A DNA stretch of 64,000 nt from Anaerolineales bacterium (GTDB lineage Bacteria > Chloroflexota > Anaerolineae > Anaerolineales > UBA11579), in NCBI GenBank assembly GCA_021463845.1, contig JAJTXV010000001.1:518174-582173 (forward strand), in the 5' to 3' direction. Shown one piece after another: positions 1,570 to 14,908 of this stretch. The notes beneath the pieces were generated by a model that was not told the origin of the DNA, made no database searches, and worked only from the letters and a program-made list of their open reading frames with translations. Position 1 is the stretch's first letter; each line of letters starts with the position of its first letter. The translations under genes were made by a program, and so were the position numbers.

Positions 1570-3585
1570 CTGGCTTGCTAGGTCGGCTGCCGTGTTCACC
1601 GGCAGCTGACATGCAAAGTTGCGACAGACATACGCCGTGGCCAGCCCGTCTTTGAGCGGCCGCTCGGCCAGCAGGGGCGGGCCGCCGGCCGCCGGAGGAT
1701 AGGACGAAACCGCGGCCACATCGAACGGCCGCCACGCACTCCATAAGGTTTCCACAAGCCCATCAGCGTCTTCACCCACGATCGCCACCTCGCGGCCGCC
1801 AGCCAAAAGCCAGCTGCCTGCGTATAGCCACTGGGCAAACGCGGTGGGGTAGCGCACCGCCGCGCCGGCAATGCCCGCCAGCATACTGCTGGCGCGGGCA
1901 TGCCAATCACTGTTGCCGGTGTAGGCATGCAGCTGCAGCAGGGCCAGCGCCGCCAGGGCGCCGCCGCTGGGGGTGGCATTGTCTTGCATATCCTTGGGCC
2001 GCGTGATCAGCGCTTCGTGATCATCACGCGTGTCGAAGAAGCCGCCGGCCGGGTCGGCAAAATGCTGGGTGAACTCGCCGGCTAGCTTTTCGGCGGCGGC
2101 GTACCAGCGCACATCGCCATCGCTCTGGTACAGCGCCAGCAAGCCCAGCGTCAGCGCGGCGTAGTCCTCGAGGTAGGCATTGTGCTCGGCGCGGCCGGCT
2201 CGCCAGGAGCGCAGAAGCCGGCTGCCGTCATGCAGTTCACGCAGCAGAAAGTCTGCATTGGCTTGGGCGATCTGCAAATAGTCTGGCCGCTGCAGGTAGC
2301 GGGCCGCCTCCGCGAACGCTATTAACATCAGCCCGTTCCATGCGGTCAATACTTTGTCATCCGTCCCGGGGCGGGTGCGCTGGCTGCGGGCCGCCAGCAG
2401 GCTGGCGTGGGCCGCGGCCAGCTGCTGGCGCACGGCGGCCGCGTCTTCCAATCCGAATTGTGTTGCGAGCGCGGCGTCATCCTTGACGCGTTGCAGCACG
2501 TTGTGGCCCTCAAAGTTGCCTGCTTCGCTAACGCCGTAAGCGGCTATCACCAGGTCCGCGGCCGGCTTCTCCAGGTGAGCATGGATCTCGGCCAGGCTCC
2601 ATACGTAGAACTTACCCTCTTCCCCTTCAGAATCCGCGTCCAGGCTGCTGTAGAAGCCGCCGTCCTCATGGCGCAGTTCGCGCACGACAAAATCCAAAGT
2701 CTCTTCACATACCTGGCGCAGGGTTTCATCGTTGCTGAGCAGATAACCGTGCAGGTACACGCGTGCCAGCTGGGCATTGTCGTAAAGCATCTTTTCAAAG
2801 TGGGGCACACGCCAGTGATCATCCACGCTGTAGCGGGCAAAGCCACCCCCGACCACATCGTACATGCCGCCCAGCGCCATGCTCTGCAATGCGTGGCGCG
2901 CCATGTCGAGCGCCAGCTGGTCGCCCTGGGTGGCGCGCCCCAGCAGGAAATCGATGGTCATGGGCTGCGGGAACTTGGGCGCCTGGCCCCAGCCGCCGTG
3001 ACGCCAGTCGTAGGCCTGGGCCAGCGCCATCACCGCCTGGCTCAGCGCTTCGGGCTGCAGGCTCTCTCCAGCCGCCTGCGGGGTGCTGTGAGCTTGCAGG
3101 TGCTGCGTGATCACGCGGCCGTTTTCGAGGACTTTGTCGCGTTCTTCGGTCCACAGGCGGCGCACATGCTGCAGCGCGTCCATGAAAGAAGGCATGTTGT
3201 AGCGCGCCACCGGCGGGAAGTACGTGCCACCCAGGAACGGTTGGCCGTCTGGCGTCATGAACACGCTCATCGGCCAGCCGCCAGAGCCGGTCATCGCCAC
3301 CACGGCGGTCATGTAGATGCCGTCGATATCGGGCCGTTCTTCGCGGTCCACCTTGATGTTGATGAAGTGCTCATTCATGTAGGCCGCGGTCGCTTCGTCT
3401 TCGAACGATTCGTGGGCCATGACATGGCACCAGTGGCATGCGGCATAGCCAATGCTCAGAAAGATCGGCTTGTCTTCGGTTTTGGCCCGTTCTAACGCTT
3501 CCGGCCCCCAGGGATACCAATCGACTGGATTGTCCTGGTGTTGCAGCAGATACGGCGAATTGGAAGTGGCGAGGCGGTTGGCCAT
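1555..3585 (-). CDS. Thioredoxin-domain protein, YyaL/DUF255 family
   Basis: 676 aa. The N-terminus [45 protein letters not shown] is the hallmark of the DUF255/YyaL (SPATA20-like) family. A long alpha/alpha-toroid-like C-terminal region follows. Confidence 0.85.
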
Positions 3586-4010
3586 CAGCGCAGCGCCACC
3601 AGGAATGTGCCACCTGCCACCAGCACGATACCCAGCCAGTTGAGCGGCGTGAGCGTTTCGCCCAGGAGGGTGACGCCGAACAGGGCCACGAAGACCACAC
3701 TGAGCTTATCGATCGAGACGACTTGCGCCGCCTGGCCCGTGCTAAGGGCACGGTAGAAGGCCAGCCAGGAGGCCGCCGTGGCCAGGCCGGAGAGCGCCAG
3801 TAGCAGAATGTTGCGCGGCGTCCACTCCTGCGTTTGCGCAAACTGCCCGGTCGCCCACAGCACCAGCGCCATGGCCGGCACCACGATGAGTGTGCGCACG
3901 AAGGCGCCTATATCCGAACTGATGCCGCTGATGCCCATTTTGCCCAGCAGGGTTGTGGCGGCTGCGAACAGGGCCGAGAGGAAAGCCCAGAAGACCCACG
4001 ATTGGCTCAT
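3585..4010 (-). CDS. Small EamA/DMT-superfamily membrane protein
   Basis: ORF 3585..4040. The start at ATG 4010 (MSQSWVFW...) avoids overlap with the upstream gene. It has four or five hydrophobic helices and an EamA-like ending ([17 protein letters not shown]). Confidence 0.6.
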
Positions 4011-4011
4011 G

Positions 4012-4785
4012 CTAGGCGATGTCCTCCAGAGACTGAGCATCTTCGGCGCTCAGCTCGATCGCCTGGGCCTTGTAGTTGGCCTTGATGTTCTCCGGCCTGG
4101 TGGAGCGCGGAATGAGAATCAGGCCTTTGCCCAGCAGCCAGGCCAGCGCCAGCTGCTGCGAGCTGGCGCCGTATTTGGCGCCCAGCTCGCTCAGCCGCGT
4201 CTGGGCCGCTTCGCTGCCCAGGCTGCGGATGGGGCTGTAGGCGGTGACGGTGATGTTATTGGCCTGGCAGAAGGCCACAATGTCGTCCGGACGCGTCTCC
4301 AGGTTGTACTTGATCTGATTATTGGTGACCTGCACGCCGGTCTTTAGCGAACGTTCCAGCAAAGCCACATCAAAGTTCGAGACTCCCAAGGCGCGCACTT
4401 TGCCGCTCTGACGCACGGCTTCCATGGCCGGCAAAGTCTCCTCCGGCTCGGCTTCTTCGCGCGGCCAGTGGATGAGCAGCAGGTCGATGTAGTCGGTGCC
4501 AAGCTCGTTGAGGAAGCGCTCCACCGCCTGAGCCACTTTGTCAGCCGTGACAGAATGGCGCCACAGTTTGGTGGTGATGAATACTTCGTTGCGCGGCAGG
4601 CCGCTTTCGCGCACGGCCGCGCCGACTGCCAGGTGGGTTTCGTAAATATCGGCGGTATCGATGTGGCGATAGCCGGTGCGCAAAGCGTGCAGCACGCTGG
4701 CTTGCGCCATCTCCTTCAGGCCGGAGGTGCCGAAGCCAAGTTGCGGGATCTGGATGGTTTCAGTGAGGGCAATGGTCTTGTTCAT
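4012..4785 (-). CDS. Aldo/keto reductase
   Basis: 257 aa. AKR motifs: GFGT, GYRHIDTADIY, LLLIHWP, GVSNF. Confidence 0.85.
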   Translation of the reverse strand: MNKTIALTETIQIPQLGFGTSGLKEMAQASVLHALRTGYRHIDTADIYETHLAVGAAVRESGLPRNEVFITTKLWRHSVTADKVAQAVERFLNELGTDYIDLLLIHWPREEAEPEETLPAMEAVRQSGKVRALGVSNFDVALLERSLKTGVQVTNNQIKYNLETRPDDIVAFCQANNITVTAYSPIRSLGSEAAQTRLSELGAKYGASSQQLALAWLLGKGLILIPRSTRPENIKANYKAQAIELSAEDAQSLEDIA

Positions 4786-4797
4786 GATGTCATGCAG

Positions 4798-5565
4798 CTA
4801 GGCGCTGGCATCCAGCGCGGCCACATCCTCCTTCTTCAATGTGAGTTCCAGCGAGCGGAAGTTGCTGTCAATGTGCTTGGGATTGTTCGAGCGCGGGATG
4901 ACGATAAAACCTTTGGCCATCAGCCAGGCCAGGGTGACTTGCTCCGGGGTGCTGTCGTAGGCCTCGGCCAGGTTGGCGACGAGCTTGCGCGCCTTGGCGC
5001 GCCCGCCCACTTTGACCGGGCTGTAGGCTGTGACGGTCACATTGTTGGCCAGGCAGAACTCGGCCACATCATCGGCGCGCACTTCCAGGTTGTACTCGAT
5101 CTGGTTGTTGCATACCGGCAGGCCAGTGGCGAGGGCGGCGCGCATGTCTTCGGCTTCAAAGTTGGACACGCCTATGGCGCGCACCTTGCCCGCCGCCCGC
5201 GTCTCTTCCATGGCGGCCAGGCTTTCCTCAGCCGGCGTGCCGGACAGCCAATGGATCAGCAGCAGGTCAATGTAGTCGGTGCCCAGCTCCTTCAAGAAGC
5301 GGTCCACAGCTGGGCCAACCTTAGCGGAGGCCAGGGTGCTGCCATATAGCTTGGTCACCAGGAAGATGTCTTCGCGCCGCAGGCCGCTGTCTTTCATCGC
5401 CTGGCCCACTTCGGTGTGGTTGTGATAGTAGTCGGCTGTATCCAGATGGCGGTAGCCGGTTTGCAGCGCGTGCAAGGTGGCCTGCTTGGCATCCTTAAGC
5501 GCCCAAGTGCCAAAGCCCATCTGCGGAATGTGTATGTTGTCCACCAGTGGAAGTGTTTTGTTCAT
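4798..5565 (-). CDS. Aldo/keto reductase (tandem paralog of 4012..4785)
   Basis: 255 aa. It has the same AKR motifs (GFGTW, GYRHLDTADYY, LLLIHW, GVSNF) and is collinear with its neighbour. Confidence 0.85.
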   Translation of the reverse strand: MNKTLPLVDNIHIPQMGFGTWALKDAKQATLHALQTGYRHLDTADYYHNHTEVGQAMKDSGLRREDIFLVTKLYGSTLASAKVGPAVDRFLKELGTDYIDLLLIHWLSGTPAEESLAAMEETRAAGKVRAIGVSNFEAEDMRAALATGLPVCNNQIEYNLEVRADDVAEFCLANNVTVTAYSPVKVGGRAKARKLVANLAEAYDSTPEQVTLAWLMAKGFIVIPRSNNPKHIDSNFRSLELTLKKEDVAALDASA

Positions 5566-6251
5566 TCGATATTGTCTTTCTTGGCCAGATTATGCCTTGC
5601 GCAAAGCAGCTGGATATTATTCGCAAGTAAAGAAGTCCCGCCTTTTGAGAAAGGGATCACGTGGTCAAAATGAAGCTCAGTGTTCTTCCCACATTGAACG
5701 CATTTCCCTCTATCTCTAGTCCAGACTTCTAGCTTGACACTGGATGGAATAATACGACTCGGTTCCAGTTCTCGAATTGTTTGAATTGAAAGATCACCCA
5801 GATTATCAGCGAGTCGGAGTTTGAACTTAAAGACATTTCTTATGCTGTCTGAAGAAATCCAGGCATCAATTAACTCGAATAGTCCATTGTTGGACCAAAT
5901 GCCACTGTGAATTTTTTCATAGACTCGCACTTTTTCCGCAGCGCGCTGCCCACCTTTATAGTCCTGAGCCGCCGTGAAGAACAACCCATTCTGAGTCAAA
6001 GTGCCTGATGATGTCTTCATCGGCTGGTCTATGGTTTTTACGTCTACTCCAGGTCTTCTTGATGCATCGTGTCCTTCATAAATCAGAACAGTGCCATTCT
6101 CTTGAAGTGCGTCGTTATATGGCGCATTTCTTCTAAGTGACATCAGGATTACTGAGTAACTTTTGCCGAGTTGATAGTTCATGCCCCGCTGAAGGCTTAC
6201 TCCCTCAGTTTGACACATCTCGATATAGGGAATAATTTCATTGTTCCGCAT
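5562..6251 (-). CDS. SRA(YDG)-like domain fused to an HNH nuclease; putative modification-dependent (type IV) restriction endonuclease
   Basis: 229 aa in a low-GC stretch. The C-terminus CVQCG...LHFDHVIPFSKGG...NIQLLCARHN is an HNH motif. The N-terminal ~150 aa (VILMS...YNDAL..NGTVLIYEGHD...DQ..T.GTLTQNGLF...KVRVYEK...NGLFELIDAW...VFKFKLRL) follows the order of SRA/YDG-domain landmarks. Confidence 0.6.
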   Translation of the reverse strand: MRNNEIIPYIEMCQTEGVSLQRGMNYQLGKSYSVILMSLRRNAPYNDALQENGTVLIYEGHDASRRPGVDVKTIDQPMKTSSGTLTQNGLFFTAAQDYKGGQRAAEKVRVYEKIHSGIWSNNGLFELIDAWISSDSIRNVFKFKLRLADNLGDLSIQTIRELEPSRIIPSSVKLEVWTRDRGKCVQCGKNTELHFDHVIPFSKGGTSLLANNIQLLCARHNLAKKDNIE

Positions 6252-6261
6252 GGAGCTAATT

Positions 6262-6840
6262 CTACGGCTTGAAGAAGCTCATGCCAACGCCCATCCTTTG
6301 CAGCCCTTCGCTGGCCCAATGCTCCAGCATGGTTGATTCGCTATCGAGCAGCTTGAATAGGGCGGGGATGGCGCGCGTATCGCCGATGAGCGCCAGGGCT
6401 CGCGCGGCTTCCACCTGGGCGTTCTGAGTGCGGTTGTCTTGCAGCGCGTCCGCCAGCGGTTCGACCGCGGCGGCGCCCTGCGCCACCAGCGCGTCGCCCG
6501 CCAGGCGCGATAGCAAGCCGTCCTCGCTGGCCAGCAATTCCACCAGCGCGGGGATGGCGCCTGCGTGCGGCCGCTGGCTCAACGCCAGCGCGGCGCACTG
6601 CTGCACGCTGCCGTCGCCATCGGCCAAGGCTGCGGTCAACAGTTCACCGGCCTTGGGATGTAAAAAACCCGCCAGCGAGCGCACAGCCCACCAGCGGGTC
6701 TCAGGGTCAGGGTTTTGGAGCAGGGGAGCTAGCGCAGCCAGCCCGGCCTCGGCGTGAGCGGGCAGCGCCGCCGCCGCTGCCTCGCCGCGCTCGCTATCGC
6801 CGCTTTGCAGGTCAGCCAGCAGATAGGCCAGCGTGCTCAC
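6262..6840 (-). CDS. HEAT-repeat protein
   Basis: ORF 6262..6978. The likely start is GTG 6840, 5 nt after the upstream stop. It has repeated PETRWWAVRSLA / VQQCAALAL / EAARALALIGDTRAIPAL helices typical of PBS-lyase-type HEAT repeats. Confidence 0.6.
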   Translation of the reverse strand: MSTLAYLLADLQSGDSERGEAAAAALPAHAEAGLAALAPLLQNPDPETRWWAVRSLAGFLHPKAGELLTAALADGDGSVQQCAALALSQRPHAGAIPALVELLASEDGLLSRLAGDALVAQGAAAVEPLADALQDNRTQNAQVEAARALALIGDTRAIPALFKLLDSESTMLEHWASEGLQRMGVGMSFFKP

Positions 6841-6845
6841 GCTGT

Positions 6846-7073
6846 TTAGTCGGCCGCGGTCTTGGGGGCGGGCACTTCCAGCTTGTCTTTGGAGGTGCTG
6901 ACCCATTTGTCGCCGACCTCGATCAGCATGACCGGAATGTCGTCGATCACCGGGTACTTGCGCCCACACTCCGCGCACACAAACCAGGCTTCTTTATAGA
7001 ACTCAAGCTCGCCTTTGCCGCTTTGAACACAGTGGGGGCAGCGCAGGATCTCGATCAGTTCAGTGCTTACCAT
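6846..7073 (-). CDS. Trm112/YcaR-family small zinc-ribbon protein
   Basis: ORF 6846..7166. ATG 7073 is preceded by AGGAG. The sequence LIEILRCPHC...LVCAECGRKYPVIDDIPVML is the Trm112p-like signature. Confidence 0.75.
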   Translation of the reverse strand: MVSTELIEILRCPHCVQSGKGELEFYKEAWFVCAECGRKYPVIDDIPVMLIEVGDKWVSTSKDKLEVPAPKTAAD

Positions 7074-8388: not shown

Positions 8389-10269
8389 CTATTCTCCAGA
8401 GGATGGCGGAGCCGGCGGCATGCCCGGCGTGCCGGGGCCGTATTGGTACACAGCTGCCCAGGGTTGGTACTTGGTCGTGATGACATCTTCGTTGATTACC
8501 TCGCCGTTGCGGTACACCGTGCGCGTCACGCGCACGGTAGCGCCCTCAGCAGCATAATCCACTTGATCGATCTCGCCAGTGGCAAAATCGGGATTCTCTT
8601 CGTACTTATCCTCCAGCGCCGGCACAATATCGCGCGGGCCGGTTGTGTTCCACTCCACGCTGCGCCCATCTGAGGTGGAGTAGAACTTCCAGGTGATGGA
8701 GCGGGCCGCCACGTTGACGTATGTCTCCATCAGTAGCCAGCTGTCGGTATCGTTCTGGAACTTGAAGTCAACCACCGGCGCGTACACTGTTGCATCCAGG
8801 CCCACCAGACGCGGGTCGCGCTGTACGGCGGCATTGTACTCGTAGTAGCTCACGCGGTAGGCATGGGCATAGCGTTCGATGATAGGGAAGCCGCCAAAGA
8901 ACGCGGCCCGGAACAGAGTGGTACTCACCTGGCACACGCCGCCGCCCACGCCCTGGATGGTGCGCCCACCGAAGATGATCAACGCCTCGGCAAAGCCGGA
9001 ATCGAGGCTGATGTCGCCGATGTTGTCCACCATCGAAAATACTGCGCCAGGCGGCACCAGCAGGCCATGAAAGCGCTCGGCGGCGGTCTGTATGTTCTGA
9101 ATGCGCTCCGGGCTGGAGCCGTAGAAATATGTGGTGGCTTCGACGACCAGCTCACGCAGGCCGAGGTCAGCGGCCTTGGCGTCATCCAGCACGGTGGGTT
9201 CGGTGAGGGTGTATTGCAGGTCGATCTGATGGGCGCCTTGGGCCAGCTGGGCGTTGATGTGATCAATGCTGTTTTGCACATGTAGCTGGCGGCCAATAAT
9301 GGCTGATTTGTAGAGATCGAGTTCGCGCGTCTCGTCATTGAAGATGAAGCGCGCATTGCGCGGCGTAGCAGCCACATCGGCAGACAGCGGCAGCAGGATC
9401 GCGGCCAGCTTGTCTGACTGCAGACCCACCTGGTAGTGTGCGCCATCGCCAGTTTCCACGCGCTCGATGCTCAGCATACCTGCCAGCTGCTCCGGCTCCA
9501 GCGTCCACGGTCCCGGGGCGTCCTCGTAATCGCCACCAGGGGCGATCACGAGCGGCTGGCTCAGGATGCCGCGGGCGATCTCGGCCTGCGCGCTCACGTC
9601 CAGGATGCGCGGCGGCTGCTCGATAACGGCCAGCGGCACGCGCACGTCTTGCATATCCAGCAGGGTGGCGGCCAGGAAGGCGCCCGTGCGCTCGGTATCC
9701 AGGGTCAGGCCCACTTGGCCGGGCTGCACTTGCACATCCAGCCCGTTGACGCTGAGCTGGGCTTCGACGGTGGGGCGGTTGAATTGGCTCGCCAGGCCTT
9801 GCAGAGTCAGCTGGGCCTGGTCGCCATTGAAAATCAGGCGCGGCGCCAGCTGTGCGCCGCCGCGCAGCGATTGGATCTTCTCGGCAATGCCTTCCCACGG
9901 CAGCCAGCTGCGGCCAAAGCCATAGGCCGCCTGGGCGCTGGCTTCGGCATCCAGCAGCAGGCCCAACTGGGCCGGGCTGTAGGTCCAGCTCTGGTCGCCA
10001 TAGGTCAGCGTCACCTGCCCGCTGAGCGGGTAGGTGAGCTGCTGGCTGAGGTAGGCGATCGCCTCGGTGCGGCGCATGCCGCCGATGTCCACGCCGCCCA
10101 CGCTGACGCCGGGATACACGCGGCCCAGGTACATCAGGCCAAAGATGACCGAGAACAGGAAGGCGGCCAGCGCAAGCAGCCCGGCGGCTACCGCCAGGGC
10201 GGCTGCCGCCTTGGCTACGAAGCGCGGTGGGGCAGGGCTATAGGATTGCGGGTAAGCCGTGGTAGACAT
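8389..10269 (-). CDS. VanW/YoaR-like protein with N-terminal membrane anchor
   Basis: 626 aa. It has an N-terminal TM helix and repeated peptidoglycan-binding-like segments. The C-terminal VanW-type core reads GGGVCQVSTTLFRAAFFGGFPIIERYAHAYRVSYYE. Confidence 0.75.
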   Translation of the reverse strand: MSTTAYPQSYSPAPPRFVAKAAAALAVAAGLLALAAFLFSVIFGLMYLGRVYPGVSVGGVDIGGMRRTEAIAYLSQQLTYPLSGQVTLTYGDQSWTYSPAQLGLLLDAEASAQAAYGFGRSWLPWEGIAEKIQSLRGGAQLAPRLIFNGDQAQLTLQGLASQFNRPTVEAQLSVNGLDVQVQPGQVGLTLDTERTGAFLAATLLDMQDVRVPLAVIEQPPRILDVSAQAEIARGILSQPLVIAPGGDYEDAPGPWTLEPEQLAGMLSIERVETGDGAHYQVGLQSDKLAAILLPLSADVAATPRNARFIFNDETRELDLYKSAIIGRQLHVQNSIDHINAQLAQGAHQIDLQYTLTEPTVLDDAKAADLGLRELVVEATTYFYGSSPERIQNIQTAAERFHGLLVPPGAVFSMVDNIGDISLDSGFAEALIIFGGRTIQGVGGGVCQVSTTLFRAAFFGGFPIIERYAHAYRVSYYEYNAAVQRDPRLVGLDATVYAPVVDFKFQNDTDSWLLMETYVNVAARSITWKFYSTSDGRSVEWNTTGPRDIVPALEDKYEENPDFATGEIDQVDYAAEGATVRVTRTVYRNGEVINEDVITTKYQPWAAVYQYGPGTPGMPPAPPSSGE

Positions 10270-10303
10270 GGGGAAATTGTATCGCTTACTCTCACAGATA
10301 TGA

Positions 10304-10332
10304 TTGACATTTAAAAATATGAGTGATATAAA
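10304..10332 (+). promoter_or_regulatory. Sigma70-like promoter upstream of the S12 paralog
   Basis: TTGACA (10304-10309), a 17-nt spacer, then TATAAA (10327-10332), about 40 nt upstream of ATG 10372. Confidence 0.45.
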
Positions 10333-10371
10333 CTACTGCTTATAAACAAGAATAGATGCTAGGACTGGTAA

Positions 10372-10797
10372 ATGCCAACAATTAATCAATTAGTTCGCAA
10401 GGGTCGTAAGACAAAGAGATCAAAGCAAAAGGCTAAGGCCTTTAAGTTCATTCTAAACTCAAAACTCTCGCTGCGAAAAAAAGATAAGAAGGGTTCCCCA
10501 CAAAAGCGTGGGGTTGCAACCGTAGTCCGCACGATGACGCCACGCAAACCTAATTCGGCGCTTCGAAAGATAATGCGCGTAAGATTATCGAATGGGATGG
10601 AAGTAACTGCTTATATACCAGGTGAAGGTCACACTTTGCAGGAGCACAGCGTCGTTCTAGTTAAGGGCGGAAAAGTTAGAGACTTACCTGGCGTAAGGTA
10701 TCATGTTGTGAGAGGCGCTTTAGATGCTACCGGCGTTGAAGGTAGAAAGCAAAGTAGAAGTAAATACGGAACTAAAAAAGCCAAGAAGGCGAGTTAG
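10372..10797 (+). CDS. rpsL: Ribosomal protein S12 paralog (divergent, stand-alone)
   Basis: 141 aa. S12 motifs run end to end: [20 protein letters not shown](R)[22 protein letters not shown](R)[14 protein letters not shown]. It has no rpsG/fusA/tuf neighbours and lies in low-GC context. Confidence 0.85.
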
Positions 10798-10819
10798 CCC
10801 TTTTTTTAAGGTGGTTGCT

Positions 10820-11326
10820 TTGGTTCAGGATGAAAAAATTGTAGCAATTGCGTATAAGCTTCATGTTGATGGAGCTTTATATGAAAGCGTCTCTAGCCAA
10901 GCTCCATTTGAGTATCTTCATGGTGGCAGTAATATCCTTACCGCGCTTGAAAAGGTGCTGCAGGGCAAATCAATTGGTGAAACTGTTGAAGTCAAGCTTT
11001 TAGCTGACCAAGCTTTTGGGGATTATGATGAGGACAGCGTAGAGGTGGTTCCGCGGAGTGATTTTGTCTTTACCCAGCCCGGCATCAATATAGAAGTTGG
11101 CCAGCAGGTTCAGCTAGTTGACAGTGAAGGCAATCTTACAAATTATGTTGTAACGAGATTTGATGACGCTGTTGTGGTTTTAGACCCTAATCATCAATTA
11201 GCGGGCAAGCAATTAAGTTTCACGATTGAAGTTGTAGGAATTAGGGAGCCATCTGCAAGCGAGCGTGATCGAGGTGTACCTAATAGTCTCGACTCAAGGC
11301 TTGGAGTGGTATTGAGACAGGAATAA
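10820..11326 (+). CDS. slyD: SlyD-like FKBP-type peptidyl-prolyl isomerase (no His-rich tail)
   Basis: ORF 10724..11326. The plausible start is TTG 10820 (SD AAGGTGG 5 nt upstream), with GTG 10811 as an alternative. It is collinear with SlyD: IVAIAYKLHVDG...PFEYLHGGSNILTALEKVLQGKSIGE...DPNHQLAGKQLSFTIEVVGIREPS. Confidence 0.75.
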   Translation: MVQDEKIVAIAYKLHVDGALYESVSSQAPFEYLHGGSNILTALEKVLQGKSIGETVEVKLLADQAFGDYDEDSVEVVPRSDFVFTQPGINIEVGQQVQLVDSEGNLTNYVVTRFDDAVVVLDPNHQLAGKQLSFTIEVVGIREPSASERDRGVPNSLDSRLGVVLRQE

Positions 11327-11375
11327 AATTTGTTGTTTTGATAGGCGGAGTGTTATTGTCTATACGGAGATTGAA

Positions 11376-12629
11376 TTGAAAAAGCTCCTTCTCGGGTGTC
11401 TCGGCGTTCTTCTGTTTGCATGTTCACCGGTGAGCAACTCTGGCACTGTTACTACGCTTCGAATTTTTGACTATTCACCAGATGCAGCAGCTTTCTGGGT
11501 CGAAATTATCCCACTGTTTGAACTTGAATACCCAGACATTGAAATTGTACACGAGTCGGTAACCCCGGATGTTTTTTTTCAATTGAAGTCTGCGAAAATT
11601 GCTGGTCAGAGCGTTGATATTATCTCAGGGCAACCACAAGACGACCTATTTACTAAGGCAAATAGAGATCTCTTTCTCCCATTGTCTGGCGAGGATTTCC
11701 TTGCAAATTTTTATCCTGATTTAGTTCAGCAGGGAGTAGTGGATGGGGAGATTTACTTAGTGCCGACAAGTATGGAAACGGTTTTAGTGTTTTATAACAA
11801 AGAAATCTTTGCCGAGCATGACCTCTCGATCCCTAGAACTTGGTCTGAATTCCTAAGTTGCCTTGAGGTTTTAGAAGCTGCCGGACATATTCCCATTTTA
11901 TTCGGTGGCCAACAGCAATGGCCTGTTGCCATGCACATTATTGCTCTAGAAACTGCGATTGTTAGAAGTGCTAACCCGGATTTTTATAGTCAAGTAAGAA
12001 TGGGAGAGAGTGCACACAATGATCCGGAGTGGGTAGAAGTCTTTGAAAAGCTATCAGTGCTTAAGGATTACTATCAACAATTTAGTCTTGGTCAGGACTA
12101 CGATCAAATTCCAAGTCTTTTCGCTTCAGGTACCGGGGCGATGATTATTGATGGGAGCTGGCAGGCTGGAGCTATAACAAAAGCTCAGCCGATCTTTGAT
12201 GTCGGAGTCTTTGCACTTCCAGGGACCGATGACGTTGATGCAAATGGCGTTGTATCAACAAAAATGGGGAATGGCTTTATGGTACTCAAGGATTCCCCAA
12301 ATCACGAAGCAGCTTTGAAATTCCTTGAGTTCTTCTCCCGACCAGAGATATACCAATTGTATGCTAATGCTACTGGCCGGCTACCATCGCAGCGTTCCGC
12401 GGAAATTACTGACTCCGTTTTGTTGGAGATCTTACGAACAATTAATGATGAGAAGTATCGTCAAGTAATGGTTTGGGAAAATTTAGTAATTCCTGGTGCT
12501 CGTTATGATTTTGATGCGCTTGGAATAGCGGTTGTGTCCGGAGATCTTTCGGGAATTGAGGCGGCAAACCGAATGCAGCAAAACATTTTAGATACTAAGG
12601 ATGATTGGGAAGAAATAGAGCTTCCATGA
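11376..12629 (+). CDS. ABC transporter substrate-binding lipoprotein (carbohydrate/CUT1-like)
   Basis: 417 aa with a TTG start. It has a lipobox (LLFACSP) and the layout of extracellular solute-binding family 1. Two MalF/MalG-type permeases follow it. Confidence 0.75.
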   Translation: MKKLLLGCLGVLLFACSPVSNSGTVTTLRIFDYSPDAAAFWVEIIPLFELEYPDIEIVHESVTPDVFFQLKSAKIAGQSVDIISGQPQDDLFTKANRDLFLPLSGEDFLANFYPDLVQQGVVDGEIYLVPTSMETVLVFYNKEIFAEHDLSIPRTWSEFLSCLEVLEAAGHIPILFGGQQQWPVAMHIIALETAIVRSANPDFYSQVRMGESAHNDPEWVEVFEKLSVLKDYYQQFSLGQDYDQIPSLFASGTGAMIIDGSWQAGAITKAQPIFDVGVFALPGTDDVDANGVVSTKMGNGFMVLKDSPNHEAALKFLEFFSRPEIYQLYANATGRLPSQRSAEITDSVLLEILRTINDEKYRQVMVWENLVIPGARYDFDALGIAVVSGDLSGIEAANRMQQNILDTKDDWEEIELP

Positions 12630-12662
12630 AAAGCGTAATGAGCACAATTCGGCTAGCTTAGT

Positions 12663-13568
12663 GTGTTCAAAAAACCGTTGTGGTCGAAAATTTCAGTTTA
12701 CCTTCCTTTTTTCGCGGCTGTCTTTCTCTTTTCCTTCTTTTTTTTGCTCCCAGCTTTTTTGAACTTAGTCTTCTCAGTTACAGATTTTGATGGAAATATT
12801 AATCAGATTCATTATATTGGTTTGCAAAACTTTGTTCGTGCATTTACGCTCGACCAAATGCGGATTTCTAACTCCCTCTTCGTAACATTAGTTTTTACAA
12901 TTGGGTCAGTCATCCCTTTAAATACTTTGGGCCTAGCATTGGCAGTTCTTGCTTTGGATGACACCCTCTACAATAGGGTTATCCGAGTAATAGTTTTTTC
13001 TCCTGCCATTTTGGGAACAATAGTTGTGGGGCTTACGTGGAGGCTGATGCTTGATCCTACGCGTGGACCTGTGAATGCTTTTTTACAAAAAATTGGAGAA
13101 GGCTCGGCGCTTTTGGGGGACTTGACGCTCTCTCTGCCCTTGGTCATTTTTGTTCGAGTTTGGATGTACTTGGGTTATACGATGCTCATATACACGATAG
13201 GCTTAAAAGCAATTAATTCAAGTATATATGATGCTGCTGTGGTAGACGGAGCCTCCTCGTTTCAGGTGTTTAGATTAATTTCTCTTCCTCTTCTTATCCC
13301 CGCAATATTAGTGAACTTGTTTTTTACAACTGTCGGCGCCTTAAATACATACGACATAATTGTTGTGCTTACAAATGGAGGGCCGCTGGATCGAACGACT
13401 ACACTCCCACTTTTTGTATATCGTATCCTTACTTCTGGCAGTACAATTGCATCTAGATATGGGACATTGGCCTATGGGACTGCAATTTCTACTGTTCACT
13501 TTATCTTGGTGATGTTAGCCGCGCTGGTTGCATACATTATTCTAAGGAAAGCGGCGAGCTCTTTTTGA
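12663..13568 (+). CDS. ABC transporter permease (MalF-like)
   Basis: 301 aa with six TM helices. The EAA-type loop reads IDGASSFQVFRLISLPLL. Confidence 0.8.
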   Translation: MFKKPLWSKISVYLPFFAAVFLFSFFFLLPAFLNLVFSVTDFDGNINQIHYIGLQNFVRAFTLDQMRISNSLFVTLVFTIGSVIPLNTLGLALAVLALDDTLYNRVIRVIVFSPAILGTIVVGLTWRLMLDPTRGPVNAFLQKIGEGSALLGDLTLSLPLVIFVRVWMYLGYTMLIYTIGLKAINSSIYDAAVVDGASSFQVFRLISLPLLIPAILVNLFFTTVGALNTYDIIVVLTNGGPLDRTTTLPLFVYRILTSGSTIASRYGTLAYGTAISTVHFILVMLAALVAYIILRKAASSF

Positions 13569-14383
13569 TGCAAGGACTTTTCAGCAGGAAAATTGCCAGG
13601 ATAAGTCTTGCGTGGTTTGCAGGATTAGTACTTGTGCCACTCTTATTGATTCTTCGGGTGTCATTGAAAGGAGAGGTTGATTGGCTGCAAAGGCCTCTTG
13701 ATTTCTTTTCTCCAGTTTATTTTGAAAACTACTTGGTTGCGTGGACAACTGCCCAGCTGGGAAAATCCTTTGCAAACAGTTTATTGTATTCATTATCAAC
13801 TGCCCTGATTGTGTGCCTAAGTGGCTTGATTATCGCTTACCCGATTTCCAGAAGAAATGTGCCCTACAGTTTATTTTGGCTTGCTTTGTTTGCGATTGGC
13901 CTTGTGATCCCCTTGGGGTTGATTCCTAGCGTTTATTTATTTAGATACTTGGGACTATACAACACTTACTTTGGATATGTGCTAGTTAGCTGCGCTATTA
14001 ATTTGCCCGTGGCGGTATTTTTGTTCGTGGCGTTCATTAAAACTATGCCTATTGAGCTTGAAGAAGCAGCCATCTTGGACGGATGCTCATACTTTGGTTT
14101 TCTTTATAGGATTTTGATTCCTCTAATGAAACCGGCAATTTTTGTTTCCGGATTATTGACGATAATATCAGTTTGGAATGACTTCATTAATCCCATGCTT
14201 TTTATTTCTGAAGCTTCATTGAGGCCTCTAACAACAAGTATTTATGTGTTTCAAGGGCAATTCGCGACTAACTGGCCATTATTGTCTGCTGCGATTGTCA
14301 TGATATCTCTGCCATTGGTCGCTATATTAATACTTTTGCAAAAAGAATTGGTGCCTAGTTTGCTTATAGAGTCATCAAAATAG
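13565..14383 (+). CDS. ABC transporter permease (MalG-like)
   Basis: 272 aa. It overlaps the upstream permease by 4 nt. The EAA loop reads EEAAILDGCSYFGFLYRILIPLMKP. Confidence 0.8.
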   Translation: MMQGLFSRKIARISLAWFAGLVLVPLLLILRVSLKGEVDWLQRPLDFFSPVYFENYLVAWTTAQLGKSFANSLLYSLSTALIVCLSGLIIAYPISRRNVPYSLFWLALFAIGLVIPLGLIPSVYLFRYLGLYNTYFGYVLVSCAINLPVAVFLFVAFIKTMPIELEEAAILDGCSYFGFLYRILIPLMKPAIFVSGLLTIISVWNDFINPMLFISEASLRPLTTSIYVFQGQFATNWPLLSAAIVMISLPLVAILILLQKELVPSLLIESSK

Positions 14384-14395
14384 ATGGGCGTGTAA

Positions 14396-14908
14396 ATGAC
14401 ATCTACTAACTCCTCTCCCCAACCCGTCTCCGTTTCGCGCATCACCATCTCCCAGCTGATGCAGCCGGAGAATGCCAACCTGCTCGGCAATGTCCACGGC
14501 GGCCACATCATGAAGCTGGTCGACGAGGCCGGCGCCCTGGCCTGCATGAAGCACAGCCGCCAGCGCGTGGTCACCGTGGCGGTGGACCGCATGACCTTCC
14601 AGCATCCCATCCGCATCGGTGACCTCATCATCATCCATGCCGAGGTCAGTTATGTCGGCAGCACCTCGATGGAGGCCGAGGTCTCTGTGCACGCCGAGAA
14701 CCCCACCACCGGCGAGAGCTGGCACACCAATACCGCCTACCTGGTCTATGTAGCCTTGGGCGAGGACGGCAAGCCGGTGCGCGTGCCGCCGCTGGAAGCT
14801 GAGAACGACTTCCAGCGCCAGCGCATGGAGCAGGGCGCCGCCCGCCAGAAGTATCGCCTCGAACAGGCCAAGCAGGAACGCTCCCTCTTCGGCAAAGACT
14901 CTGCATGA
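14396..14908 (+). CDS. Acyl-CoA thioesterase (hotdog fold)
   Basis: 170 aa. ISQLMQPENANLLGNVHGGHIMKLVDEAGALA is the YciA/ACOT-type hotdog signature. Confidence 0.8.
   Translation: MTSTNSSPQPVSVSRITISQLMQPENANLLGNVHGGHIMKLVDEAGALACMKHSRQRVVTVAVDRMTFQHPIRIGDLIIIHAEVSYVGSTSMEAEVSVHAENPTTGESWHTNTAYLVYVALGEDGKPVRVPPLEAENDFQRQRMEQGAARQKYRLEQAKQERSLFGKDSA

Follow-up and report, generated by a model that had tools for sequence, protein, structure and literature searches.

Positions 10286-14395 of the window, by which we mean the whole 64,000-nucleotide stretch of Anaerolineales DNA that was analysed, are a horizontally acquired operon located where a short spacer separates two divergently oriented core genes. 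The operon carries five genes: a paralogue of ribosomal protein S12 (S12'), a SlyD-like chaperone (SlyD'), a substrate-binding lipoprotein and two ABC permeases. This cargo looks like a mosaic of two modules, the importer and the S12'-SlyD' pair. We lean, with modest confidence, toward an explanation that combines acquisition at an insertion hot spot, a two-module mosaic and an S12' that would confer insensitivity to streptomycin-class drugs.

An AT-rich insertion at a recurrent site

Along the sequence, GC content falls from 0.58-0.70 to 0.36-0.47 at about 10290 and rises to 0.63-0.68 at about 14390. The 4.1-kb AT-rich block so delimited (10286-14395) has a GC content of 0.40-0.45, uniform over all five genes, and lies more than 4 standard deviations below the genome (mean 0.612, sd 0.045, from 1-kb windows). 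The five genes have GC3 values of 0.35-0.41, as against a genome mean of 0.73 +/- 0.10, 0.77 for the canonical rpsL and 0.75-0.85 for the genes that flank the island. The initial annotation had described a sharp-bordered low-GC block at 10290-14392, and both the sliding GC profile and the GC3 comparison with the genome and with rpsL bear this description out. It had also reported that mobility genes, a tRNA site and flanking repeats were absent. This too was confirmed: Pfam detected no mobility domains among the five island ORFs, no tRNA was found in positions 1-25000 of the window and repeats flanking the island are at background level. A search of Rfam returned zero matches. Of the hallmarks of an integrase-type genomic island, the block thus shows deviant composition and absence from relatives, and lacks an integrase or transposase, a tRNA or att site and flanking direct repeats.

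The left flank is a core VanW/PG_binding_4/G5 gene (8389-10269, minus strand; Pfam VanW, 1.2e-36), which is 86-94% identical across congeners and there adjoins the thioesterase gene. The right flank is this core 4HBT/YciA-like thioesterase gene (14396-14908, plus strand, the orientation of the island; Pfam 4HBT, 1.9e-21), with 73-96% identity in 22 congeners. The two genes are divergent, and in four congeners (G016, G018, G002 and G006) their start codons are 48-64 bp apart and the site is empty. G012 has a 2.5-kb low-GC insert with four orphan ORFs at the same spot, and G003 and G017 have a 1.53-kb low-GC insert there that encodes a GmrSD_N+HNH protein. Across the 8 species compared, this pair of core genes encloses nothing extra in four and one of three distinct cargos in the others; the block itself is absent from the related genomes. 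In this genus, low-GC cargo has repeatedly been inserted into the VanW-thioesterase spacer, which has no integrase, transposase, tRNA or repeat. The genome holds 39 low-GC patches, comprising 3.7% of its length, of which the island is one.

The junctions are sharply defined. In the left junction zone (10286-10301), homology to the congeners stops after GGAAATTGTATCG, which ends at 10285, and the inserts in G003, G017 and G012 likewise start directly after GGAAATTGTATCG. The sequence CTCACAGATAT (10291-10301) may be a leftover of the old thioesterase promoter, or else the left-hand half of an imperfect palindrome whose arms lie on either side of the -35 box. The right junction zone (14384-14395) consists of the 12 nt from the permease stop to the thioesterase ATG, and homology to the congeners restarts at that start codon.

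Many hot spots of horizontal transfer lack mobile elements, with recombination at the flanking core genes (PMC5635113). The spacer resembles the hot spots of this kind described by Oliveira, Touchon, Cury and Rocha (2017, PMC5635113) in that the cargo varies between the same core genes, recognisable mobile-element genes are lacking and the cargo includes strain-specific genes here and, in sister species, a gene for defence (GmrSD/HNH). It differs in its unusually large GC contrast (about 18 points) and in borders that are sharp to a single spacer, and flank recombination is something that we only infer here. Entry would have been by illegitimate recombination or by homologous recombination mediated by the flanks, as in hot spots without mobile elements.

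Transcription of the operon and the sugar importer

A predicted promoter with a close match to consensus (10304-10332, plus strand) was read directly from the sequence. It comprises TTGACA (10304-10309), a 17-nt spacer and TATAAA (10327-10332), extended by TG at 10324-10325 to give TGaTATAAA. The TTGACA-17-TATAAA promoter motif that had been noticed ahead of the genes is thus upheld. An automatic promoter scan passed over it solely because the scan requires the -10 hexamer to end in T. Profile searches also verify the five-gene content originally proposed. The ORFs are all in the same orientation, with ATG, TTG (10820), TTG, GTG and TTG as start codons in gene order and gaps of 22, 49, 33, -4 and 12 nt, the last being that to the thioesterase. 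The promoter, of sigma-70 type and internal to the island, would drive both modules. The TATAAT box that lies 8-15 nt upstream of the thioesterase ATG in congeners is missing here, and no terminator-like sites were found between 14383 and 14396. Transcription probably continues into the thioesterase gene, which lacks its own -10 box, and into rsmD, so that the thioesterase is probably transcribed by read-through from the island. High expression is made less likely by the AT-rich codons of these genes, given the high GC content of the host.

The last three genes encode what is, from its domains and motifs, a coherent and ordinary CUT1 sugar importer. The substrate-binding lipoprotein (11376-12629, plus strand, 417 aa; SBP_bac_1 and SBP_bac_8, 1.3e-32) has the N-terminus MKKLLLGCLGVLLFAC followed by S, a lipoprotein-type signal peptide that ends in Cys (LLFAC, then S). 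Two of its relatives are 42-44% identical and the rest at most 35%. Permease 1 (12663-13568, plus strand) is of the MalF/UgpA type (Pfam BPD_transp_1; NCBIfam UgpA/MalF-like), with the EAA loop DAAVVDGASSFQVFRLISLPLLIP, and is 43% identical to the permeases of the loci L035 and L036. Permease 2 (13565-14383, plus strand) is of the MalG/UgpE type (BPD_transp_1, PF00528), has the EAA loop EEAAILDGCSYFGFLYRILIPLMKP and is 41-43% identical to permeases of the same two loci; its start overlaps the permease 1 stop. Both proteins match PF00528, and their EAA motifs were read from the translations, so that the pair of permeases expected in a CUT1 system is present.

All three importer proteins are thus related equally (41-44%) to the same LacI-SBP-permease-permease modules, and none of them is more than 44% identical to anything known. 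One of the two nearest modules adjoins genes for a sulfatase, a GH130 protein and a sulfatase-maturase-like radical-SAM protein; by analogy with this context, the substrate of the island importer is probably an oligosaccharide. No S12 or SlyD gene was found near the related importer modules. The lack of an ATPase gene had been presented as an oddity, which is not borne out. CUT1 importers commonly share an ATPase of the MalK/MsiK type, of which the genome encodes a single example (C16:113779-114891, a 370-aa ABC ATPase ORF with an OB_MalK match), and this would energise the importer. The island system is like CUT1 (MalEFG/UgpBAE-type) importers with a shared MsiK/MalK in its SBP_bac_1 lipoprotein, its pair of EAA-loop BPD_transp_1 permeases and an ATPase located elsewhere. 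It is unlike its two nearest relatives, which have an adjacent LacI-type regulator.

The S12 paralogue and its SlyD-like neighbour

S12' (10372-10797, plus strand, 141 aa) is a full-length uS12 protein (TIGR00981/PF00164): it scores 198.2 bits against a TIGR00981 cut-off of 112.95 and covers positions 1-123 of the 124 in that profile. Alignment and comparison with 120 sequences identified the changes C34A, K43R, R83K, R86K and K88R (E. coli numbering, Met1 counted), and the tolerant-type residues suggested by the initial annotation are accordingly present in K43R and K88R. The decoding loop TPKKPNSA reads TPRKPNSA as a result of K43R. The loop GGRVKDLPGV is present with R86K and K88R, as is Asp89, the target of RimO. 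The C34A change leaves S12' free of cysteine; all of the 120 relatives compared have C34. The protein retains 89 of the 99 S12 positions that are highly conserved. Ten deviations affect positions with conservation of 90% or more, and three of these (K43R, R86K and K88R) are among the six sites classically linked to a streptomycin phenotype (hypergeometric P = 0.013). Conservative replacements predominate among the ten (four exchanges between K and R, one of C by A and one of L by F), and there are zero frameshifts or stops. The codons for K43R (CGC) and K88R (AGA) are opposed to the AT bias of the island.

The nearest relatives of S12' are Anaerolineae S12 proteins. It is a singleton among 5.8 billion proteins, known from one population, with a terminal branch of 0.53 compared with a median of 0.012 (about 44 times), a length that also fits relaxed constraint. 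Among 401 Anaerolineae genomes, with 41 relatives also checked, the host is the only one with a bona fide second S12; none was found in 22 congeners or in the 400 other class members, and three other double matches in the class survey are partial or contig-end copies. The canonical rpsL (C20:2749-3165) is wild type and has S7 downstream of it. S12' instead precedes the SlyD-like gene and lies outside a str-operon context (rpsL-rpsG-fusA).

SlyD' (10820-11326, plus strand, 168 aa; Pfam FKBP_C and NCBIfam SlyD profile) starts at the TTG at 10820 and not at the overlapping ATG at 10724; a ribosome-binding site, AAGGTGG, was read at 10808-10814. An FKBP domain (PF00254, 2.9e-06) with an IF insertion is present, and the match to PRK10737 spans positions 4-150 of the 196 in that profile. 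The score of 90.5 bits is below the SlyD equivalog cut-off of 174, and the C-terminus, ERDRGVPNSLDSRLGVVLRQE, has no run of His or Cys such as would form a metal-binding tail. The best database relative is 45% identical and the host's own SlyD-like gene product 32%. The best matches of SlyD' are of proteobacterial type, whereas those of S12' are of Anaerolineae type, which suggests separate ancestries. No S12-SlyD pairing was found elsewhere: in 81 metagenome S12 loci, S7 was nearby in 77, three were cut off and SlyD was near none.

Possible drug tolerance and competing explanations

In the reading that we prefer, S12' would take the place of the canonical S12 in a fraction of the ribosomes, which would then be insensitive to streptomycin-class drugs, and SlyD' may help S12' to fold or assemble. 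To judge from the sequence, drug tolerance through S12' is plausible. Against it counts the classical dominance of streptomycin sensitivity in merodiploids. An example of rpsL counter-selection appears in PMC4182516. A K42R rpsL gene on a plasmid gives rpsL+ E. coli streptomycin resistance in trans (PMC6763770), and K42R confers high-level resistance and is non-restrictive (PMC2916820). The streptomycin-resistance changes found most often in M. tuberculosis are K43R and K88R (PMC4061058). S12' is like these chromosomal rpsL alleles (K43R, K88R; E. coli K42R) in having the same amino acids at the same residues. It differs from them in adding R86K, R83K and C34A, and in residing in an extra gene beside a wild-type canonical rpsL.

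A second precedent is duplicated-target resistance (GyrB, EF-Tu, FabB/F and DnaN copies; ARTS genome mining; PMC5570205, PMC9290621). In both cases an essential target exists in a second copy, obtained horizontally, that carries resistance residues; S12' is indeed an extra, phylogenetically incongruent copy with a signature of horizontal transfer. The differences are that S12' is neither in nor beside a biosynthetic gene cluster, that its flanks are core genes and that its role is a predicted one. No aminoglycoside-modifying, rRNA-methylase or biosynthetic genes were found within the island. The broader proposal is that S12' and SlyD' form a horizontally transferable target-replacement module, in which the altered S12 would enter some of the 30S subunits and make the cell tolerant of natural products that contact S12, those of the streptomycin class among them; this seems to us unlikely. 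If true, the module would represent a resistance route so far undescribed for S12; we found no report in the literature of an acquired second rpsL that acts as target-replacement resistance.

The strongest competitor, which we consider possible but doubtful, is that the island is a recent and selectively irrelevant insertion, with a redundant, drifting S12' whose drug-site changes are coincidental. The singleton status of S12' in one population, its long terminal branch and an island codon usage ill matched to the host would all be expected of such a neutral passenger. Moreover, about 8% of canonical Anaerolineae S12 proteins carry a single K43R, K88R/Q/T or R86K/S, so that variants at residues 43, 86 and 88 are tolerated natural ones that need not signal drug selection. 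However, the five ORFs are all intact, with good ribosome-binding sites and a near-consensus promoter, and the changes in S12' are mostly conservative and spare the great majority of conserved positions. The CGC codon for K43R is three steps from a Lys codon, and this change is therefore an old, maintained one.

It is quite improbable that the pair serves instead as an alternative-ribosome module, in which S12' would tune decoding accuracy or speed, or would provide a Cys-free S12 under stress, with SlyD' as an assembly helper. The absence of the otherwise invariant cysteine fits this proposal. Positions 43, 86 and 88 also determine accuracy, but K42R stands alone among the resistance changes in reportedly having no effect on it (PMC2916820). 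Ribosomal-protein paralogues are a known principle, as illustrated by the Zur-regulated C- forms of L31, L33, L36, S14 and S18 (PMC7431078). S12' resembles these in being a second copy that might define a ribosome sub-population; it differs in having neither Zn-ribbon logic nor a Zur-type context, and in being foreign and unique to one species. Also against the proposal, neither a regulator nor a promoter element tied to stress could be recognised, S12 is not known to belong to the established families of ribosomal-protein paralogues, and the class survey revealed no family of S12 paralogues.

The initial annotation had speculated that the cassette is coupled, the importer taking up or sensing an aminoglycoside-like sugar while S12' protects the ribosome. 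The shared orientation and short gaps, the even GC content and the tolerant-type residues of S12' agree with this idea, which we nonetheless hold to be very unlikely. The only modules even moderately close to the importer are under LacI control; one of these adjoins genes for a sulfatase and a GH130 protein, and S12 or SlyD accompanies none of them. The S12' and SlyD' matches point to separate ancestries; and to import a ribosome poison would be counter-productive. A mosaic, offered as the alternative, fits better, but the chance accident envisaged does not, because the spot is a recurrent insertion hot spot.

Finally, a misjoining of foreign low-GC DNA by assembly or binning is barely conceivable, even in a 20-contig assembly with several low-GC patches at contig ends: four congeners have the flanks side by side and three more have other inserts between them, the junctions have no repeats able to mislead an assembler, and an independently assembled 4755-bp Logan contig (run SRR17318676), equivalent to 10023-14777 of the window, covers both junctions at 100% identity.

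Composition, borders and gene content of the island

The island (window positions 10286-14395) lies between a VanW gene on its left and a thioesterase gene on its right. In 300-nt windows the GC content is 0.58-0.70 until about 10200, 0.36-0.47 across about 10290-14390 and 0.63-0.68 again by 14500. The genome of the window (G000; 2.33 Mb in 20 contigs, with the window at C1:518174-582173) has a GC content of 0.612, with a standard deviation of 0.045 among 1-kb windows, and on this scale the island falls more than 4 standard deviations below the mean. The five island genes have GC3 values of 0.35-0.41, which may be compared with 0.75-0.85 in the flanking genes and 0.73 ± 0.10 for long ORFs genome-wide. 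Both measures confirm the abrupt drop in GC described in the initial annotation. Nor does the island share the composition of the host's highly expressed genes, as the canonical rpsL has a GC3 of 0.77. An independently assembled Logan contig of 4755 bp (run SRR17318676) is 100% identical to window 10023-14777, a stretch that includes both junctions, and part of the island is present in a second sequencing run. The island is real, inserted and foreign, and it carries no mobility genes. The sole comparable low-GC stretch in the 64-kb window is a sharply bounded 0.7-kb patch at 5562-6251 (minus strand), whose 229-aa product carries an HNH nuclease domain at its C-terminus (Pfam HNH, 7.7e-08).

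Domain and profile matches upheld the gene calls of the initial annotation. The first gene (10372-10797, plus strand) encodes S12', a second ribosomal protein S12 that scores 198 bits with TIGR00981 against a cut-off of 113. The next, SlyD', encodes a SlyD-like FKBP protein and most likely begins at a TTG at 10820, 22 nt past the S12' stop and with the ribosome binding site AAGGTGG, rather than at an overlapping ATG at 10724. The remaining genes specify a CUT1 sugar importer: an SBP_bac_1 protein (SBP) whose signal peptide has a terminal Cys (...LLFAC|S), and two BPD_transp_1 permeases, both with intact EAA loops. From S12' through the thioesterase the intergenic gaps are 22, 49, 33, -4 and 12 nt. 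The promoter proposed earlier is present, as a consensus match only, in the form TTGACA (10304), 17 nt, TGaTATAAA (10332). An imperfect palindrome at 10292-10326, TCACAGATAT ... ATATGAGTGA (8/10 complementary), lies on either side of the -35 box and could be an operator. Searches of the island region for tRNAs, Rfam families, mobility domains and flanking repeats above background found none. An 18-nt similarity between the S12' and thioesterase starts (GTAAATG...) was considered as an att site and rejected, as it is matched by about 60 chance families.

The VanW-thioesterase spacer in related genomes

The thioesterase neighbourhood was fetched for 20 congeners and the spacing of the start codons of VanW and the thioesterase gene was measured. 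In the more distant congeners VanW does not adjoin the thioesterase gene. In the sub-clade that possesses the pair, 4 of 8 species carry an insert, and three unrelated low-GC cargos occupy the one spacer. The site is empty in G016, G018, G002 and G006, with a spacer of 48-64 bp (GC 0.33-0.44). In G012 it holds 2538 bp (GC 0.47) with four orphan minus-strand ORFs without a Pfam match (3218-5313 of the fetched locus L029), and in G003 and G017 it holds 1527-1529 bp (GC 0.41) with one GmrSD_N+HNH ORF, type IV restriction-like (minus strand, 5539-6984 of the G003 locus L044). The insert in G000 comprises 4.1 kb (GC 0.40-0.45) with the five island genes. A conserved GGAAATTGTATCG directly precedes the start of all three inserts. 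In G003, G017 and G012 the cargo is opposite in strand to the thioesterase gene, and a TATAAT is kept 8-15 nt before the thioesterase ATG. In G000 the cargo and the thioesterase gene run in the same direction, the TATAAT box is absent and the ATG follows the permease stop after only 12 nt; from this arrangement we infer that the thioesterase gene and rsmD are now probably transcribed by read-through.

The best reading of these data is that the spacer is a recurrent insertion hot spot and the island a two-module cargo within it. Hot spots of gene transfer without mobile elements have been described, in which turnover is thought to proceed by recombination at the core genes on either side (PMC5635113). 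The spacer shows the same pattern of cargo. As foreign cargo in a transfer hot spot the island is an object of a known kind, and an ordinary one, although a very clean example, with borders as sharp as a single spacer, three cargos among the eight sister species and an absence of mobility genes.

The whole genome contains 39 low-GC patches of 0.85-9.8 kb each, totaling 86.8 kb (3.7%), with GC contents of 0.41-0.49 in a backbone of 0.61. Hypothetical, defence-like or polysaccharide genes make up most of their cargo. A few patches adjoin tRNA ends or an integrase, the majority do not, and several lie at contig ends in this 20-contig genome. No common motif was seen at the edges of the 39 patches. 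The largest, C3:21851-31650, contains apparent adenylation/acyl-carrier-type and glycosyltransferase-like ORFs.

Ancestry of the importer, SlyD' and S12'

Among 5.8 billion proteins SBP has two moderately close relatives (44% and 42% identity), the remainder being at or below 35%. Both belong to loci with the order LacI / SBP / permease / permease, followed on the longer contig by a sulfatase, GH130, a radical-SAM/SPASM gene and a SulP transporter. A profile search with SBP gave a single 42% match, on a 5-kb MAG contig, with others at or below 29%, and no close relatives were found in genome contigs. The island permeases are 41-43% identical to those of the LacI loci, in the same gene order. 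Because the relatives, identity level and order are the same, SBP and the permeases constitute one co-evolving CUT1 module. Neither S12 nor SlyD is a neighbor in these related loci, and the importer is, as judged from its relatives, an ordinary sugar module unrelated to S12'. The initial annotation had speculated on a tie to an aminoglycoside-like sugar compound; nothing supports this link. The missing ATPase gene had also been noted. For CUT1 importers it is normal to lack an ATPase gene of their own, Streptomyces (MsiK) and Bacillus (MsmX) offering examples, and a single MalK/MsiK-type ATPase gene is present in the genome, at C16:113779-114891. The first ~120 nt of that gene have a GC content of 0.43-0.48, rising to 0.72 from the Walker A codons, and it directly adjoins a low-GC patch (C16:112651-113800); there may be a recombination joint inside it.

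SlyD' possesses both an FKBP and an insert-in-flap part, but its score does not reach the equivalog cut-off for SlyD and it has no metal-binding tail. The best matches to it, at 38-45%, are housekeeping SlyD genes from contigs of proteobacterial type, none of them with S12 in the vicinity, and it is 32% identical to the host's own SlyD-like gene. The nearest proteobacterial-type homologues (L100, L101, L102, L103 and one further contig) consistently lie beside a JmjC_2/RoxA-type ribosomal oxygenase gene. No link between SlyD and S12 was found, published or genomic; the literature on SlyD with S12 or aminoglycosides yielded incidental mentions only, with SlyD as a model protein.

S12 is normally strictly single-copy. 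The canonical rpsL of the host lies on contig C20, followed by S7, and S12' is 77% identical to it. When 22 congeners and 18 further relatives were compared, a second S12 was found only in G000. Among 401 Anaerolineae genomes four gave two S12 matches, and S12' is the only bona fide case, the second copies in G272, G316 and G432 being partial or at a contig end. In the protein database S12' is a singleton; the next matches are at 74-78%, and all named ones belong to Anaerolineae or Chloroflexi. Firmicutes S12 proteins are up to about 66-70% identical. JGI metagenomes contained no relative above 74%, all matches having S7 adjoining, and in plasmid and phage collections the matches were all ordinary rpsL genes on pieces of chromosome that had been wrongly labelled. 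S12' has been seen in one population only. In a maximum-likelihood tree it falls in an unresolved polytomy within Anaerolineae sequences, not beside the host's own S12, on a terminal branch of 0.53 (median 0.012). Since S12', SlyD' and the importer seem to differ in ancestry, we favor the view that the island is a mosaic, which would have been put together in an unsampled low-GC donor.

Streptomycin-site residues of S12'

A comparison of S12' with the 120 relatives nearest to it gave 99 positions of 90% conservation or more, and at 10 of these S12' has a different residue: S19Q, P22K, L24F, a Q-to-S change in the lineage insert, C34A, K43R, A53M, R83K, R86K and K88R (E. coli numbering, Met1 counted). 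Three of these changes lie at classical sites for streptomycin phenotypes, of which there are six (43, 54, 86, 88, 91 and 92), with a hypergeometric P of 0.013 in a post hoc test. The two Lys-to-Arg changes run against the AT bias of the island. Codon 43 reads CGC, and as this is three steps removed from a Lys codon, K43R is not a fresh mutation. Of the original reading, then, two parts stand: the island is foreign and lacks mobility genes, and its S12 has tolerant-type residues (K43R, K88R). The importer proves unrelated and the absence of an ATPase gene ordinary.

S12' may act as an alternative, drug-insensitive S12. The usual objection to resistance conferred by S12' is that streptomycin sensitivity is dominant. 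This objection is weakened because rpsL+ E. coli is rendered resistant in trans by a plasmid-borne K42R rpsL (PMC6763770); K42R gives high-level resistance with no hyper-accurate phenotype (PMC2916820). The AT-rich codons may limit expression of S12' in G000. The long branch of S12' is also compatible with relaxed constraint. Of the nearest S12 proteins of the canonical type in Anaerolineae, about 8% carry one natural streptomycin-site change (K43R, R86K/S or K88R/Q/T), and these residues are therefore tolerated natural variants. Such changes occur in P0002, P0011, P0017, P0018, P0020, P0042, P0064, P0093, P0103 and P0107; P0002 has K43R and R86S, and S7 follows it. Dityromycin-type resistance was rejected, as the contact residues R31, V33, R56, H77 and V79 are unchanged, and so was a zinc-sparing paralogue, as S12 has no zinc ribbon, there is no Zur context and SlyD' lacks a metal tail.

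S12-based streptomycin resistance is known only from point mutations in the resident gene, and the acquired, site-altered S12 of the island is new. If a foreign S12 with K43R, R86K and K88R were expressed and assembled, a deeply embedded core ribosomal protein would be horizontally suppliable as a resistant or alternative target. This would matter for resistance surveillance, where such a gene would be annotated merely as "rpsL", and for target-directed genome mining and ideas of ribosome heterogeneity.

A paper on 14 virus-encoded ribosomal proteins does not mention S12 (PMC6375957). A search of viral contigs gave one S12 homologue that stands alone. It is 54% identical to S12' and lies at 4998-5405 of a 442-kb contig filed as viral (L104, IMGVR_UViG_3300029288_005873). 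It keeps K43, R86 and K88, is surrounded by hypothetical ORFs with no S7 within 5 kb, and could be either a huge-phage uS12 or part of a misfiled cellular contig.
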